64,000 bases of DNA. It comes from Eledone cirrhosa (lineage: Eukaryota). Below the pieces are notes generated by a model, which was not told where the DNA came from, searched no databases, and saw only the letters and a list, made by a program, of their open reading frames with translations. Shown here in pieces: positions 12,893 to 59,718 of the stretch. The first letter of the stretch is position 1. Each line of letters opens with the position of its first letter. The stretch is from positions 300,018,001 through 300,082,000 of the forward strand of contig OZ024740.1 of assembly GCA_964016885.1 (NCBI GenBank), read 5' to 3'. A program made the position numbers and the translations under genes.

Positions 12893-14307
12893 TTGTGTAT
12901 ATATATATATATACTCGAATTTTCTCTTCTCTACAGCGTAGAGTAGATAGCAGACACTGAAGAAATATATTGTTCTATTTCTATTGCATTTCAAGACAGA
13001 ATTCTGAGGCGCCCAATATCTCTTTTGCATCTTTCGCGTTTCCACATTTGCAAAAGCGGTGTTTACGGATAAATAACACTATTCACACGTTGTTAGTAGC
13101 GTCCCCTCCTCTTGGCAACGATTTATATCAGGAGCCAAGTGGTCTGAGAAATGTCGGCAATCAAATGTAGCATTTCCCTTTAAAATTAACTTTTACATTT
13201 ATGAAATTAGGATAATATCTTTTCCCTAAACATTATTTTGTTCTTTTCTTGTTATTTTCGATTCCGTGAAAAGGCAGTCACTAAATTCCTTCTCACCTGT
13301 ATAATTGAAAATGTTGTCATTATAGATTCAGAGAAGAAATCCAATTCTTTACTTCATGCGAAATCATTGTATCATTTTTCAAGATTGCTATCGCTATTGT
13401 TTCTTCTGCTAATTGAAAAGTAACGTTTTATCATTTCTTACTTCAAATGGCATATTCTGATGTCCTTTTTGGTTTATATTTCAACAAGTTTATATTAAAA
13501 AAAGTGGCTCATATTCCACTTAAATAGTTTTATCATAAAAGCAAAATTATCTGCACGTTTTATAGCAGGCAGACATTTACTTTGAAACAAATGGAAAGTT
13601 CATAAGATATGAAAATAAGTCTCTATTTAGCTTTTTTAACTCTGTCATTAATGTGATGAGACATAACTGAAGAACAGTGGATGATAGTAAAATAAGTTGT
13701 TTGCATTAGTTTGAGTTCTTTACCCTTTCTGATTTTAGTGGAAAACACATCATAAATAGATGGAAGTCTGGAAAACTTTACCTACTTCATTTACAAAGCG
13801 TTACTCTATAATCTGTGTAAACAAATATATCGATATAAAAAAAGAACACTTGCATATCCCATGTGCAAGTATTTGTTTTTGTTTCCTTAATCAATGTTTC
13901 ATCTGCTACAACATTTGAAATATTTTTACCGTTTCTCATAAAACCACAAATTAAATTTTACATTAGTTTGGGAGGGAATTCATACTAATAGACAAAAAGA
14001 AAAAGTATTCATATAAAACTAGATGCCTTTTAAACGGAAAAAATGAAACGAAATTTCATTTCCCACTCTTAGTACGACTGTTAGTTAAATATAAGTATGT
14101 ATACGTACATACATATATGTATACAGACGTACAGTAGTATGTATATATATATATATATACATACATGCACACATATATATATATGTACGTATGGATTCAC
14201 CGAACATTTATTATAATGCTCGGTGTGTTTGTAAACAAACATCCCGTATTAAGCCGTAGTGTCTAGCAACCATCGTTGCGCGTTTGTTCAACACTGACAA
14301 AGGAACG

Positions 14308-14344
14308 CTGTACTAGTTTCAAACTTATTAGCTATCGTCAGCAA
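14308..14344 (-). ncRNA. Type I minimal hammerhead ribozyme (437-bp family)
   Basis: Minus strand: ttg-CTGACGA-tagct(aata)agttt-GAAA-ctag-TA-cag. Confidence 0.75.
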
Positions 14345-14575
14345 CCTATACCTTCCTGCCAGTATGATTGAACGTCTGAAAGTAGATACTTTCCTTATGC
14401 ATATTATCGCCTGAGCAGCCTAATTTGCATATCGAGTGGTTAAATCGGCCGGATGCACCGAAAACGATAAACGGAAAAATGAAACGAAATTTCATTTCCC
14501 ACTCTTAGTACGGCTGTTACTTAAATATAAGTATGTATACGTACATACATATATATATATACAGACGTACAGTAG

Positions 14576-14610
<35 letters not shown>

Positions 14611-14613
<3 letters not shown>

Positions 14614-15220
14614 AGGTCACCACTTGGTGCTACTGGTAACATGTATCCCAGTACAACCTGTTTCATGGTCGGGTCGTTGGCGACTAAACTGGCAACCCCA
14701 CCAAGGTTTCTTGGTGAGGAGGGTGACTTTGGACATCCTGCAGGACTAAAAACAAAACCTGTCAAAGGGCAAAGGAGCTCTTAAGAGTCAATGGCCATCC
14801 AAAATCACTGGGAGAGATGACCCCTTAGCCTTTGTCAAGGCAGAATTCTAGGAGAAGGAAAACTCTGATATAACACCTGCAACCCTGATGGTATCCAATG
14901 ATGTTGACTTGTTCTTCTTTTTGGTAAATATCATCTTGGTTAAGAGAGTGGGACTGGCTTTGTGCAGTGCCTTTGCTCACTATAAAAGCTTCACGGCACA
15001 GGCATTGCTTTATATCTGGAGATCTCTCTGCACTTGCCGTCACATGGTACCATGGGCCCAGCACTATGTGTCAATAATTGTCACAAGTGTAGTGTTTGTA
15101 CCAGAGTTTTCAAGTCGCTGGCTGGACTAAAAAGTCACACTCGTTCAGCGCATCGGTAGGGGTTCTCCTACATGGATATATAGTAGTGGCCGTACTCGAA
15201 AACGAGTTGGCAGCCACCAT
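14611..15220 (+). mobile_element. Bipartite RTE-derived non-autonomous retroelement (~610 bp), copy 1
   Basis: The 5' part resembles an RTE 5' UTR (ggagaaggaaaactctga); the 3' part encodes a C2H2 remnant CSVCTRVFKSLAGLKSHTRSAHR* typical of the RTE ORF2 C-terminus; near-identical copies at 19078-19597 and 30022-30632; sits in a (TA)n tract. Confidence 0.75.
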
Positions 15221-15379
15221 ATATATATATACGTACATGCACACATATATATATGTACGTATTGTATGTACGTATACATACTTATATTTAAGTAACAGCC
15301 GTACTAAGAGTGGGAAATGAAATTTCGTTTCATTTTTTCCGTTTATCGTTTTCGGTTTCGGCCGGTTAACCCACTCGAT

Positions 15380-15387
15380 ATGCAAAT
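15380..15387 (+). promoter_or_regulatory. Octamer motif ATGCAAAT conserved in the 437-bp family
   Basis: Also at 14423-14430 (-), 16447, 16879, 38621 and 49068; 88-89 nt upstream of the hammerhead core wherever a core follows; function inferred only. Confidence 0.45.
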
Positions 15388-15464
15388 TAGGCTGCTCAGG
15401 CGTTAATATGCATAAGGTAAGTATATACTTTCAGACGTTCAATCATCTGGAAGGAAGGTATACT

Positions 15465-15501
15465 CTGCTGACGATAGCTAATAAGCTTGAAACTAGTACA
15501 G
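15465..15501 (+). ncRNA. Type I minimal hammerhead ribozyme (437-bp family)
   Basis: ctg-CTGACGA-tagct(aata)agctt-GAAA-ctag-TA-cag. Confidence 0.82.
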
Positions 15502-15794
15502 CGTTCCGTTGTCAGTGTTGAACAAACGAGCAACGATGGTTGCTAGACACTACGGCTTAATACGGGATGTTTGTTTACAAACACACCGAACATTATAATA
15601 AATGTTCGGTGAATCCATACGTACATATATATATGTGTGCATGTATATATATATATATACATACTACTGTACGTCTGTATACATATATGTATGTACGTAT
15701 ACATACTTATATTAGATGCCTTTTAATATAATAAAACATTAGCACTATTTTTACGATTGAGATAGTCGACACTCTTATTGTTTTCATTATAAGA

Positions 15795-16161: not shown

Positions 16162-16246
<85 letters not shown>

Positions 16247-16248
<2 letters not shown>

Positions 16249-16940
16249 GGAAAAAATGAAACAAAATCTCATTTCTCACTCTTAATACGGCTGTTACTTA
16301 AATATAAGTATGTATACGTACATACATATATGTATACAGACGTACAGTAGTATGTATATATATATAGATACATACCCATATATATATATATGTACGTATG
16401 GATTTACCGAGCAATTCGGTGCGCCCGGCCGATTAACTCACCCGATATGCAAATTAGGCTGCTCAGCCGTTAATATGCATAAGGAAAGTATATACTTTCA
16501 GACGTTCAATCATCTGGAAGGAAGGTATACAGTGCTGAGAATTATTAATAAGCTTGAAACTAGTACATCGTTCCTTTGTCAGTGTTGAACAAAAGGGCAA
16601 TGATGGTTGCTAAACACTGTACGGCTTAATTCGGGATGTTTGTTTACAGACAAACCGAGCATTATAATAAATGCTCGGTAAATCTGTAGGTACATATATA
16701 TATGTGTGTATGTATGTATGTATATATATACATACTACTGTACGTCTGTATACATATATGTATGTACGTATACATACTTATATTTATGTAACAGCCTTAC
16801 TAAGAGTGAGAAATGGAATTTCGTTTCATTTTTTCCATTTATCGTTTTCGGTGCGCCCCGCCGATTAACTCACTCCATATGCAAATTAGGCTGCTCAGCC
16901 GTTAATATGCATAATTAGGCTGCTCAGCCGTTAATATGCA
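16247..16940. repeat. 437-bp family locus: short inverted piece (16247-16412) plus ~1.2 direct units; degenerate hammerhead at 16532-16568
   Basis: atgcaaattaggctgctcagcc at 16447 and 16879 (432-bp period); core mutated to CTGAGAA. Confidence 0.8.
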
Positions 16941-17435
16941 TCTGAAGCCAACTATCATGTTTTCGTCGATATCATATTGCTAATATAAGGATGTCTTATA
17001 TTGTAACAGAATCTCAACGACACCGAGGACAAGTATATTCATTTAACTGGCTACAATACTTGCCCTATATTTAATTCACCCAAACCTAAACATCAAACAC
17101 AATTTGGATACTGGCAAGATCTCAACTACTCAGAATGTAAAAGAACGCTATAAAATAAATCGCGCAGTTTGCCGTAAAAGTTTTGGCGATGCGCCTAATT
17201 CAATGACAAAAAAATTACGGAAAATGTAAATACAGTATGACATAAAATGATTGGGACCGTATATAATTTAATGACGAAATATTTTTGAGTGAAATAACTT
17301 TAGTAAAGCTATCACACAACGTAGAATATTAGAGATGTTTTAAATTAACTAGAATCATGGATTTGATAGGCTATATGAGCGTTTGAAATATTCGAAAATG
17401 ACACCAGCTATTTCATAAAGAGGAAAACGTGGCTC

Positions 17436-18781: not shown

Positions 18782-19079
18782 TAAAATAACAGATTAAAGT
18801 TTAAGCAAAGAATCGCTACTTTCACCCTTAACGGGATCTTCTGAAACTAACAAAGTCAATCTGTAAATGCAGACTGGATATTTCAAAAAACGTTGCAACC
18901 GGAGGAAGCCAGGAAGACGATACTTTGGTTCGTGAAAACGTTCGCTGGCTAAGAACGGGACAAAAACGAATATTATACGTCATTAATAGGATCGGTGAAA
19001 AACAATTACGCGCAAAGTATCGTCTTCCTGTCTTCCTCCGGTTGCAACGTTTTTTGAAATATCCAGTTCTGCATTTACA
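18780..19079. repeat. Dispersed repeat with internal inverted arms (~18862-18927 / 19014-19079); related copy at 39085-39205
   Basis: tgtaaatgcaga..gacgatactttg pairs with caaagtatcgtc..tctgcatttaca; 18780-18897 matches the reverse complement of 39087-39204. Confidence 0.7.
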
Positions 19080-19597
19080 TGTATCCCAGTACAACCTGTC
19101 TCATGGTCGGGTCGTTGGCGACTAAACTGGCAACCCCACCAAGGTTTCTTGGTGAGGAGGGTGACTTTGGACATCCTGCAGGACTAAAAACAAAACCTGT
19201 CAAAGGGCAAAGGAGCTCTTAAGAGTCAATGGCCAGCCAAAATCAGCGGGAGAGATGACCCCTTAGCCTTTGTCAAGGCAGAATTCTAGGAGAAGGAAAA
19301 CTCTGATATAACACCTGCAACCCTGATGGTATCCAATGATGTGTTGACTTGTTTTTCTTTTTGGTAAATATCATCTTGGTTAAGAGAGTGGGACTGGCTT
19401 TGTGCAGTGCCTTTGCTCACTATAAAAGCTTCACGGCACAGGCATTGCTTTATATCTGGAGATCTCTCTGCACTTGTCGTTACATGGTGCCATGGGCCCA
19501 GCACTATGTGTCAATAATTGTCACAAGTGTAGTGTTTGTACCAGAGTTTTCAAGTCGCTGGCTGGACTAAAAAGTCACACTCGTTCAGCGCATCGGT
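19078..19597 (+). mobile_element. Bipartite RTE-derived element, copy 2 (truncated at both ends)
   Basis: Near-identical to 14640-15157. Confidence 0.8.
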
Positions 19598-20039
19598 ATA
19601 CTCATTTATGTAACTACAAGCAATCATGTGCCTTCTCACTTAAACGTCTTATCGTCCTCTTAACTTTATAGGTGATGAGTTCGCTTGTGAATTCAAACTT
19701 ATTTTTCTATGCAAAATCATATTAAAAATTGTATTAACTGCAAGTTTTATTCTTTTCGTTTCTTTTATTTTTGGACGGCGAAGAGTAAGATTCAAGATTT
19801 TCATTTTGCATCTAAATTTTATATTTATCGATTACATATAAGTTTATACACATAGATGCAGATGTTAATGGTTTCTGATGTTGTCTTTGTTAGATCAATA
19901 TAATTTATTGAAAGAAAAAATATATATCATGTAAATATTCATATTATTAGATAATCTTATTTTCAAATCTGTAATGGTTAAGCCCCGTTGTTTAACTACA
20001 GATTTGGGTTACACAACAACGCTAAATATATACTTATAA

Positions 20040-28196: not shown

Positions 28197-30021
28197 GCTG
28201 AATTGGTTATATATATATAAAGAATTAATTCATCGTTGTGGATGGAGGGAATTGTTTGGAAGATTAGTCTTGTTTCATTTCTGTATACACCTGCGATTTA
28301 GCTGGTAGCAACTTGCATCTAAAGTTTCTTTTCCTCTGGCTGACGTGGTGAAGTACGAATTGTTGGCTTAGGCGACGTTTGTATTTCGACACAAATATCT
28401 GTTGGGTTGTGTTGATTTGGTGGAAGACATTCCATGTGCATATACATGACCTAACTGGCGTACAAAATTATCATATTAGTGAATATCTAATGTTGCTCCC
28501 TTTAATGTTTCTCCAACTTTGATGTGTTGAAATGCTAAACTCACATCAAAACAATTTAACTTACATTGAGAAAATTACATGTTGATACAATTTTTCCAGC
28601 CGCATTAGTTTCATTCAGTGAAATATTATTCCTTTACATAATATGAAATATCATATTCACTGTCTTCAGATTCAGTGAAAGGTCTCCGAAGTATAATGTC
28701 ATTTAGCATAGGGAAATGATTACAAAATATGTATAAATATTCGTACCGTAATTTTATTTCCAATATTTTTGGTAATAATAAAATTGTGGTCCATCAGCTC
28801 TAAATTTCATGTGATTTGTTCTACCATAATTAAGTGCATCTAGAGCCTATTTACTAGAAGCAATTATAGTGAGCTAATGGAAAATTCAGGGGAATTCAAA
28901 CCTTTATTGCAATTTCAGCTATCTGGGAATTTAATATCATTATATGTTAGTCGTACAATATTTTTATACCCTTCAACAATTTTCATAATAATTGATGCAG
29001 AAGTGAAACTTATAATCTTCTTCTTAATACATTATACCGATGCCTACAGAATAATCTAATATTTTTTCGAGAAGGGACAATGTTACGTATACTTTTGACG
29101 CATAATTTCCATAATTAAAAATAAGACCGCCAGGGAAAATAAATTAATCGGAAATATAAACAATGTGGATAATTAAGTTATAGAGGGATTTACTGAATGC
29201 TATACGAAATAAATATTTTTCTTTATTGAAATTCCCTTCTAATTGGGAGTAATAAAACTATAAACTAACGGCAACGGTTAAGGACTTCAGGAGAAAATGG
29301 GAAACAATTTACTGAAATGATGAATGAATTTCTACCGATTAAGATTATGATATTGTGTCGAAATATTAGTAAGATATACGAAACGGTCTTTCGAAAAAGT
29401 ATGCAACCTTTGGCAGGGAAATCAATAGGCAGTGTTTAGAAAGAAACAGGTATAAAAGATTCGTGTGGGCAGACTAGTCTCCACGAGGGCATCTTCATTT
29501 TCGGAGAAAATAGCTTGGTATATGAGCGAAACGTCTTTCGTTGAGAAGGAACATTGAATCAGCTGAGATGAACGGGATGTAGCTTCATGATGATGCAGTT
29601 TTCACTTTGCGAGGTCAACAGATTCAGCTTCTCTTGACAGACTGCAAAAGGAAGACGTCGGAAGGGGTTCTGATAGTATTCGTCTGAAGATGTTTTCATT
29701 TATGGTTCCTATGTATGATGCACCAGTCACTGAAGAATAAGAAAACACTCAGGATCACCTTGATTTTCCACCAGAACTAACAGGCCTGGACTTTGCCGCT
29801 TATGACGGATACTTCCACGGAAATGATTGAGTTTAGTTTCCAGAATGTACACTTTTATCCTTATTTCATCTGCATTTATTACCATAAGCAGGAGCTCAGT
29901 ATTCTTGTAGGTTGTATCGAGCGAAATGAATGTATGACGAGTAAATAGTACAGCACCTCACACGCTGGGTGTCTGACGCCGTTGACGCATCCAGCAAGCT
30001 CAAGCCATAACTGATTGTATA

Positions 30022-30632
30022 CATGGTGGCTGCCAACTCGTTTTCGAGTACGGCCACTACTTTATATCCATGTAGGATAACCCCTACCGATGCGCTGAAC
30101 GAGTGTGACTTTTCAGTCTGGCCAGCGACTTGAAAACTTTGGTACAAACACTACACTTGTGACAATTATTGACACATAGTGCTGGGCCCATGGTACCATG
30201 TGACGACAAGTGCAGAGAGATCTCCAGATATAAAGCAATGCCTGTGCCGTGAAGCTTTTATAGTGAGCAAAGGCACTGCACAAAGCCATTCCCACTCTCT
30301 TAACCAAGATGATATTTACCAAAAAGAAGAACAAGTCAACATCATTGTATATCATCAGGGTTGCAGGTGTTATATCAGAGTTTTCCTTCTCCTAGAATTC
30401 TGCCTTGACAAAGGCTAAGGGGTCATCTCTCCCAGTGATTTTGGATGGCCATTGACTCTTAAGAGTTCCTTTGCCCTTTGACAGGTTTTGTTTTTAGTCC
30501 TGCAGGATGTCCAAAGTCACCCTCCTCACCAAGAAACCTTGGTGGGGTTGCCAGTTTAGTCGCCAACGACCCGACCATGGGACAGGTTGTACTGGGATAC
30601 ATGTTACCAGTAGCACCAACTGGTGACCTGAC
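30022..30632 (-). mobile_element. Bipartite RTE-derived element, copy 3 (complete)
   Basis: Reverse complement of 14611-15220. Confidence 0.8.
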
Positions 30633-30690
30633 ATACATACATACGTACATACATACATACCCCCCCCCATATATATATATATATATAAGA

Positions 30691-38466: not shown

Positions 38467-38911
38467 TGCTACTCTACGTCTGTATACATATATGCATGTA
38501 CGTATACATACATACTTACATTTAAGTAAGTGCCATACAACGAGTGAGAAATGAAATTTCGTTTTCATATGTTTTCAACTTATCGTTTTCTGTATGCCTG
38601 ACCGATTTAACTCACTCAATATGCAAATTAGGCTGCTCAGCAGTTAATTTTACTAAGGAAAGTATATACTTTCGAACGTTCAACTATCTGGCAGATGGCT
38701 AAACGGTGCTGATGATAGCTAACAAGCTTGAAACTAGTTCATCGTTCCTGTGTCAGTGTTGAACAAAAAGGTGACGTGGTTGCCTTAACACCGTATGGCA
38801 TAAATTCAGGCTGTTCAGTTTGTTTACAAACGAACAAAGCGGCGTTATAATAAGCGTCCGCTAAACTGATGCGTGCATATATGTATGTGTACCTGTATGT
38901 ATATATGTATA

Positions 38912-38942
<31 letters not shown>

Positions 38943-39060
38943 GCATGCTACTGTACGTATGTATACATATATGTATGTACGTATACATACATACTTACAT
39001 TTAAGTAAGTGCCATACAAAGAGTGAGAAATGAAATTTCGTTTTCATATTTTTTCAACTT
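38460..39060 (+). repeat. 437-bp family locus (~1.25 units; period lengthened to ~480 bp by microsatellite)
   Basis: gagtgagaaatgaaatttcg at 38542 and 39021; octamer at 38621. Confidence 0.8.
38702..38746 (+). ncRNA. Type I minimal hammerhead ribozyme (437-bp family)
   Basis: aacggtg-CTGATGA-tagct(aaca)agctt-GAAA-ctag-TT-catcgtt; 7-bp stem I. Confidence 0.82.
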
Positions 39061-48894: not shown

Positions 48895-49312
48895 ATGTAT
48901 GTATGTGCATGTATGTATGTATATACATACTAGTGCACGTCTGGATAATATATGTATGTACGTATACATACTTATATTTAAGTATCAGCCGTACCAAGAG
49001 TGAGAAATGAAATTTCATTTTTTCCATTTATCGTTTTCGGTACACCCGGCCGACTAACTCACTCGATATGCAAATTAGGTTGCTCAACCATTAATATGCA
49101 TAAGGAAAGTACATACTTTCAAACGTTCAATCGACTTACAGGAAGGTATACGGTGCTGATGACAGCTAATAAGCTAGAAACTAGATCAACGTTCCTTTGT
49201 CAGTGTTGACCAAAAGGGCAACGATGGTTGCCGAACACTGTACGGCTAATAATTCGGGATGGTTGTTTACAAACATATCGAGCATTATAATAAATGTTCG
49301 GTCAACCCATAC

Positions 49313-49355
<43 letters not shown>

Positions 49356-49419
49356 AGTGTATGTATGCATATACATACGAGCGTACGTCTGTATACATAT
49401 ATGTAAGTACGTATACATA

Positions 49420-49425
<6 letters not shown>
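48490..49425. repeat. 437-bp family locus: inverted piece (48490-48660) plus ~1.6 direct units with a truncated (48661-48692) and a mutated (49151-49191) hammerhead
   Basis: tgacagctaataagctagaaactag occurs twice, 499 bp apart; octamer at 49068. Confidence 0.8.
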
Positions 49426-49504
<79 letters not shown>

Positions 49505-58704: not shown

Positions 58705-59718
58705 ATATGAATAAATTTAGTCCTTCATCAGTGATCTTCCAGCCTTCATTGGTATTTCGTCGCTTTAAAGACCATATACCTCCGGTTGGTGCGAGCAACG
58801 GCTAAAGAAAGTCTTTGGGACACGTGAATAAGAGGAACGAACGAGACAGTAAACAATCAAAGATGGTAATGCAACGAAAAGTGAGGAAGAAGGAGTCAAG
58901 TCCCTGAAATCGATGAACATAAGTTCTGTGAAATCGTAGACGAGAGAGAATAAAGACCATCCGACCTTGTCAAAGTGTGCGTGAGGAAAAGAATTTCGCA
59001 CAGGTCAAACGGGAGGAAGAAGGAGAGTGAGTAGCAGAGAATGAGTGAGTGAAAGTGTGAGGAAGAGGCTAACAGAGAGAGAGTGACTGTTAGATGGGGT
59101 AAAACGAAGTAAGAGATACAGAGAAAAGGGGAAGCAGTAAGAAAGAAACAGACGGGTCAGAGCAGAGGAAATTATATATGAATATGAAAACATGGCGTGT
59201 TGCGTGGTTGCAAATGGGTTACATATGAATAAATTTAGTCCTTCATCAGTGTTCTTCCAACCTTCATTTGTATTTCATCGCTTTAAAGACCATATACCTC
59301 CGGTTGGTGCGAGCAACGGCTAAAGAAAGTCGTTGGGACACGTAAATAAGGGGAACGAGCGAGACAGTAAACAATTAAAGATAGTAATGCAACGAAAAGT
59401 GAGGAAGAAGGAGTCAAGTCCCTGAAATCGATGAACATAAGGTCTATGAAATCGTAGACGAGAGAGAATAAAGACCATCAAACTTGGTCGAAATGTGAGT
59501 AAGGAAAGAAATTCGCACAGGTCAAATGGGAGGAAGAAGGAGTCAAGTCCCTAAAATCGATGAACATAAGTTCTGTGAAATCGTAGACGAGAGAGAATAA
59601 AGACCATCCGACCTTGTCAAAGTGTGCGTGAGGAAAAGAATTTCGCACAGGTCAAACGGGAGGAAGTAGGAGAGGGAGTAGCAGAGAGTGAGTGAGTGAA
59701 AGTGTGAGGAAGAGGCTA
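58705..59718. repeat. Tandem duplication of a ~520-bp unit with an internal ~135-bp sub-duplication
   Basis: atatgaataaatttagtccttcatcagtg at 58705 and 59223; gaggaagaaggagtcaagtccct at 58883, 59401 and 59530. Confidence 0.85.

Follow-up and report, generated by a model that had tools for sequence, protein, structure and literature searches.

A predicted compact snRNA-type promoter inside a hammerhead retrozyme family of Eledone cirrhosa

The octamer ATGCAAAT is found some 36 nt past the start of the tandem hammerhead unit of a non-LTR retrozyme, a known kind of element, in the 3.0-Gb genome of Eledone cirrhosa. Together with a PSE-like core and a TATA-like box downstream, it probably forms a compact internal snRNA-type promoter read by Pol II (probability about 0.65), a reading that we draw from sequence comparison; on the same grounds, an internal promoter of one polymerase kind or the other is likely. 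We call the retrozyme family of the copy at 15380 family A, its relative family B, and three further hammerhead families C, D, and E. The window is the whole 64-kb stretch of DNA analysed, and the features of the family A copies within it are collected in Table 1. A first-pass annotation of the window had proposed an internal snRNA-type promoter, and the proposal stands in part: it gains from offsets common to five families and from a match to host promoters, but the test that it set for itself, an octamer more conserved than its flanks, came out negative.

Table 1. Parts of the family A copy at 15380 and family A insertions in the window (window positions; minus-sign offsets are relative to the predicted start)
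Feature	Positions	Strand	Basis
Insertion with an inverted copy (octamer 14423-14430, minus strand) and a forward copy	14034..15712	.	Sequence comparison
T6 tract and unit junction; insertion ends run into (TA)n	15333..15346	+	
Extended octamer TATGCAAATTAG (octamer 15380-15387), predicted -72	15379..15390	+	Identical 12-mer at -77 in U6 locus L102
PSE-like core, TCAGG in this copy, predicted -56	15396..15400	+	Likeness to host U1/U2/U4/U5 YCAGY
3' hairpin arm, pairs with the octamer in RNA	15403..15414	+	Circular-monomer folding, 7 of 8 octamer bases paired
TATA-like box GTATATAC, 41 nt past the octamer start, predicted -30	15421..15428	+	Same offset throughout the 42 listed insertions
Predicted start site, A at 15452	15451..15453	+	Inferred from host spacing
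Minimal type I hammerhead, core CTGACGA 15468-15474, GAAA 15489-15492	15463..15503	+	Sequence
Second insertion: inverted piece, unit (octamer 16447, broken core), and truncated unit (octamer 16879)	16243..16941	.	
Longer-subfamily copy, octamer 38621	38493..39052	+	
Diverged copy, octamer 49068	48953..49429	+	

Results

One layout in five hammerhead families

We conducted a census of hammerhead loci picked without regard to the octamer, which gave 176 hammerhead-like matches in 18 clusters. The octamer lies 55-115 nt upstream in 5 of the 18 clusters, against about 0.03 expected by chance, and is missing from that range in the other 13. With family A and its relative B left out, the chance is 0.002 per family and P(≥3 of 16) is 4e-6; families C, D, and E align neither to A nor to one another beyond 13-16 nt. 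A genome pattern requiring the octamer and excluding family A led to families B, C, D, and E, with 11,355 matches compared with 3 in the control, and 20 further stretches were taken from it.

The octamer had been thought to stand a fixed 88-89 nt from the ribozyme core. This distance is in fact 76-100 nt across families, and among 42 family A insertions it is 88 nt in 29, 80 nt in 12, and 89 nt in 1; what stays constant is the distance separating the octamer from the TATA/start region rather than from the ribozyme. Counting from the octamer start, families A-E share a YCA(G/C)Y core at +16, followed by a TATA-like box at +40-43 and, in most cases, by a Y|A step at +71-73, which reads C|AG or T|A in B, C, D, E, and the 88-nt types of A. 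The 80-nt subfamily of A, which has an 8-nt deletion, keeps the octamer-to-TATA spacing, with CAG shifted to +64 and G, not A, at +9. In family A the octamer starts 16 nt before the PSE-like core, which reads TCAGC in 38 of the 42 insertions, and the +16 core and +42 box have a Pol II-type spacing of 26 nt. The TATATAC box is non-canonical, with no shared variants at +41 to +46. At the predicted start, the 15380 copy has AAG, and 35 of the 42 insertions have CAG at the aligned column (C|AG being typical). Family D contains three consecutive 33-bp modules of octamer and YCAG, and its TATA box is ambiguous (+43 or +45).

We scored these units with a matrix made from 15 host Pol II snRNA promoters, which uses the PSE core and TATA only and ignores the octamer. 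Offset +16 ranks 1-8 of 756 in A, C, D, and E (1-6 in A) and 53 in B, giving a Fisher p of 3e-5 to 1e-4 for matrix windows chosen after inspecting the data. The search for a PSE using host snRNA upstream regions, which the first-pass annotation had suggested, found a YCAGY-like core at +16, but with PSE+TATA scores (2.5-8 in A, C, D, and E; -2 in B) well below those of host genes (12-19.5, in-sample).

Two classes of host snRNA promoter

Host loci were taken as the best 15 of 42 for U1, 15 of 48 for U2, 15 of 48 for U6, 8 of 15 for U6atac, 10 of 43 for U5, and 10 of 42 for U4, and as the one of one each for MRP, 7SK, and RNase P. Their upstream regions (L071-L115, L178, L186-L188, and L239-L258) fall into two classes: an octamer at -77 with a TATA box (U6, U6atac, and MRP), and YCAGY with a TATA box, at Pol II spacing in U1, U2, U4, and U5 and at longer spacing in 7SK and RNase P.

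In the first class, an extended octamer, TATG(C/G)(A/T)AAT(T/G)AG, lies at -76 to -78, outside the transcribed part, with TATA at -30. It occurs in 7 of the 15 U6 loci (three promoter types among the best 15 of 48), and MRP and the best U6atac locus have it too. Besides the identical 12-mer of Table 1, near-identical versions of the family A sequence occur at U6 L101 and L103-106/109, U6atac L178, and MRP L186. The view of the octamer as a distal element therefore fails for these host genes. Six members of a U6 array (L107, L108, and L110-L113) have a ~190-bp insertion between octamer and TATA box, which may silence them; their octamer is displaced (-270 in two of them). One further U6 locus has it at -275, and one of the 15 examined has no octamer. 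The other seven U6atac loci examined have no octamer + TATA promoter, and the U1, U2, U4, and U5 promoters have no proximal octamer save for a variant at -109 in U4 L250.

In the second class, YCAGY stands at -55 to -58 in 15 of the 15 U1/U2/U4/U5 promoters used, with an A/T-rich box near -30, and this position suggests that YCAGY is the PSE core of the host promoters; the human H1 PSE, according to the accessible text of PMC7949045, begins TCACC. All 15 of these Pol II promoters have AATTA 32-34 nt ahead of the YCAGY core, and a distal 12-mer near -260 is shared by 11 of 22 host promoters. The AATTA ahead of the core is absent in all five retrozyme families, and the best match to the distal element in A, B, and D units has 3 mismatches of 12.

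The exact combination of octamer and Pol II-spaced PSE/TATA occurs in no host gene examined, and the predicted promoter is a member of no host promoter class examined. Family A likewise departs from the vertebrate-type layout, in which, as the available part of PMC7949045 defines it, the octamer belongs to a distal element with a Staf site. A tentative account, to which we give somewhat less than even odds, is a hybrid promoter, joining the proximal octamer of the U6 class to a Pol II-spaced PSE/TATA, that several retrozyme families could have built or captured.

RNA pairing and the choice of polymerase

The octamer might instead be kept as RNA, being a hairpin or protein-binding site in the circular RNA that serves folding, stability, or recognition by the Penelope enzyme, with its promoter likeness secondary; we judge such a role unlikely. 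Whole units are strongly structured as circles (z -8.6 to -11.5), and in the circular folds of A (three subfamilies) and of B, seven of the eight octamer bases have a high pairing probability. The hairpin occurs in C too, with a compensatory change from TAG/CTA to GAG/CTC, and host U6-class promoters are without it. Pairing alone is nevertheless insufficient, because the partner arm varies between families while the octamer arm is constant, even though pairing tolerates compensatory change. Moreover, families D and E form the hairpin only weakly (z 0.4 to -0.5), and an RNA role explains neither the PSE, TATA, and start offsets that match host genes nor the occurrence of the identical 12-mer in U6 promoters, where it is not transcribed.

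A U6-type Pol III promoter, ending at the U-rich tract and yielding the transposed RNA by rare read-through, is marginally less probable still. It would account for the proximal octamer, which among the host genes examined occurs only in those of Pol III (U6, U6atac, and MRP) and so speaks against Pol II, for the TATA-like box, and for the T4-T7 tracts that lie just upstream of the next promoter, at insertion ends; a schistosome satellite offers a precedent, as cited in the accessible part of PMC2220036. Pol II fits better on three counts. The core-to-TATA distance is 26 nt, as in host Pol II genes (YCAG to TATA ~26-27 nt, vs. 32-33 nt in 7SK and RNase P); the octamer-to-TATA distance, 40-43 nt, falls 4-7 nt short of that in each of the five host U6-class examples (46-48 nt); and the T4-T7 tracts form part of units that are copied in their entirety. 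Families B and D, in addition, have T4-T6 runs in the promoter region that must be copied, and some copies that lack T6 end at the same place. According to the portions available, a 5-bp spacer change inactivates U6 (PMC7949045), and in insects the PSE sequence also helps set the polymerase (PMC1761439).

Conservation within family A

When family A insertions are sampled through their ribozyme alone, 36 of 42 retain an intact octamer. The earlier remark that it stays intact while its neighbours vary is borne out weakly by this count, but 16 of 181 other 8-mer windows are kept as well or better. Private substitutions amount to 6/336 (1.8%) in the octamer vs. 123/6542 (1.9%) in other unshared columns, so that across these 42 insertions conservation of the octamer does not exceed that of its flanks; shared variants affect 0 of 8 octamer columns vs. 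48 of 212 elsewhere (p ~0.13). Because inserted copies decay neutrally, the within-family test is a weak one, and we infer that selection is visible only as differences between source lineages. The equal decay rate could also mark the octamer as an inherited passenger of a young repeat, or as a chance word in AT-rich DNA (the window has 13 octamers vs. 6.5 expected, and the 7 outside the family A repeat are the number that chance predicts), but the cross-family census has largely refuted this very improbable reading, given the recurrence in mutually unalignable families (P ~4e-6) and the independent downstream motifs at fixed offsets.

The L147 array has a single private octamer change, ATGCATAT, in eight of its nine units. 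Assembled contigs, which are unable to reveal transcript starts, contained only known subfamily variants and missed the known variants at 15371, 15377, and 15418. Their shared start at 15378 is accounted for by branching of the graph at a variant 30 nt further along.

Family A copies in the window

A scan of the window confirmed all six octamers of the first-pass annotation, intact at 14423 (minus strand), 15380, 16447, 16879, 38621, and 49068, and its counts of the spacing to the core C within the window (88 nt in four copies, 89 nt in one). The six represent at most four independent insertion events: 14423 and 15380 share one insertion, and 16447 and 16879 form one tandem. The hammerhead core is broken (CTGAGA) in the copy with octamer 16447 and absent in the one with octamer 16879. 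Direct repeats of 14 bp (14020-14033 and 15713-15726) flank the first insertion of Table 1, and a 29-bp duplication accompanies the truncated unit of the second. In the 15380 copy, helix I of the hammerhead is formed by 15463-15467/15499-15503, helix III has 2 bp, and the predicted cut falls after 15498.

Other repeats share the window. An unrelated repeat of ~640 bp, with copies 97% identical at 14610-15225, 19077-19598, and 30018-30659, is nested inside the (TA)n part of the first retrozyme insertion (at about 14610-15225). Hammerheads of other families at ~10390 (plus strand) and ~18620 (minus strand) have no octamer upstream, and the type at ~10390 is found also 3' of a Penelope-like ORF in L167. 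A 776-bp inverted repeat has arms 96% complementary and 3.1 kb apart (39550-40325/43432-44207), and a tandem repeat with a 129-bp period extends over 2.1 copies (59401-59672).

Family A as a non-LTR retrozyme

A 14-base ribozyme anchor has 31,064 exact matches in the genome, vs. 30 in the control, and 21,636 matches have the intact octamer ahead of the anchor, a gap due partly to 5'-truncated copies. From 400 kb sampled at random we obtained no more than 12 alignment pieces, an insufficient number, and we turned to ribozyme-anchored copies: the first 100 anchor places listed yielded 102 anchored copies in 51 clusters, with the octamer region reached in 42. Same-strand tandems number 16 among the clusters, minus-then-plus pairs 13, and single copies 27.

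Units are 422-484 bp long, with a GC content of 0.36-0.39, and no complex ORF was found inside them in an ORF scan, making them non-coding. Short, low-GC, non-coding tandems with one type I hammerhead per unit are likewise what the accessible texts of PMC7229834 and bioRxiv 10.64898/2026.07.22.740005 describe for non-LTR retrozymes, although a typical length is there given as ~300 bp. The hammerhead has the CUGANGA and GAAA motifs, a UH cleavage site, and three helices with covariation, seen in helix I at one pair (85:121: TG 21, GT 16, AT 2, CG 1, and TT 2); an Rfam scan of the window gave no match at gathering score, for the hammerhead or otherwise. The lowest-energy monomer fold is not the hammerhead, as expected because motifs with a short helix III act as dimers (PMC7229834, available text).

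Of 123 junction landmarks, 67 continue into another unit and 56 stop. The 3' end is fixed: 52 of the 56 ends lie 35-39 nt upstream of the octamer's position, and almost all run into (TA)n. The candidacy of the T6 tract as determinant of this end is weakened by T6-less copies that end at the same place. In the L171 array two unit types alternate, a pattern expected from a dimeric template or from duplication at a later stage. At L182:1380-1500, a promoterless U6atac copy is fused to an inverted piece of family D, a junction that suggests template switching during retrozyme copying.

ORF pieces adjoin retrozyme copies at L119, L134, L153, L154, L167, L024, L148, L168, and L259; from their RT/endonuclease motifs we take them to be Penelope-like, and a Pfam scan of eight of the pieces (all but L259) gave no relevant match. 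We rejected these ORFs as the parent element: they are apparently nested insertions, and at the local loci examined they end in other sequences. No autonomous Penelope element ending in retrozyme units was found among the local loci examined.

Discussion

The predicted promoter is specified to the base and comes with a polymerase call. A POU-type factor bound at the octamer (-72) would assist the loading of SNAPc on the weak PSE core (-56) and of TBP on the TATA-like box (-30), with RNA starting near 15452, just ahead of the ribozyme. The polymerase would then read across the U-rich junction and on into the following unit, and a pair of hammerhead cleavages would free a monomer that retains the promoter. 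This monomer may circularise and be reverse-transcribed by a Penelope-type enzyme into (TA)n sites.

By analogy, family A probably works like newt satellite 2, which is likewise a type I hammerhead repeat in tandem and holds an snRNA-type promoter within it (in family A, one predicted from sequence). The newt promoter was reportedly tested experimentally by Coats, Zhang and Epstein in 1994, and is said to use an octamer and a PSE. In the accessible part of PMC2220036, it is cited as driving Pol II transcription. Family A differs in having its octamer 16 nt before a PSE-like core, a TATA-like box, and recurrence in five families. Newt satellite 2 is the sole snRNA-type retrozyme case that we found cited in the literature searched, and the papers listed by our search included nothing on an snRNA-type promoter in an invertebrate retrozyme. 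Transcription of animal retrozymes is barely addressed in the available texts of PMC7229834 and bioRxiv 10.64898/2026.07.22.740005: by word search, "promoter" refers in the former to T7 constructs only and is absent from the latter.

Two further systems invite comparison, each as described in the accessible portions of its source. Non-LTR retrozymes have been linked to Penelope-like elements (Cervera and de la Pena 2020, PMC7229834; Li, Clavereau and Pollet 2026), and the pseudo-LTR of Penelope/Chlamys elements resembles family A in placing promoter and start inside the repeat and in its tandem and inverted insertions, with some clades reported to target (TA)n (Craig et al. 2021, PMC8557442). 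Their internal promoter, however, overlaps an intron and is not snRNA-type, and family A units have no attached ORF. The human H1 (RNase P) promoter also sets an octamer close to a PSE and TATA within 100 bp, and this compact promoter works with either polymerase, Pol II or Pol III; unlike family A, it is external to its gene, contains a Staf site, and carries the octamer at -97 to -90 (PMC7949045).

If the hybrid-promoter account is true, the genome would contain more than 30,000 self-cleaving transcription units responsive to POU factors and SNAPc, and snRNA-type promoters would be a recurring expression route for animal retrozymes, well beyond newts. The predicted promoter would also explain the continued activity of a non-coding 430-bp repeat, and with it tens of thousands of possible POU sites would have been added to the genome. 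As a by-product, the anatomy of the host U6 and U1 promoters has been mapped, which is useful for small-RNA expression in Eledone cirrhosa.
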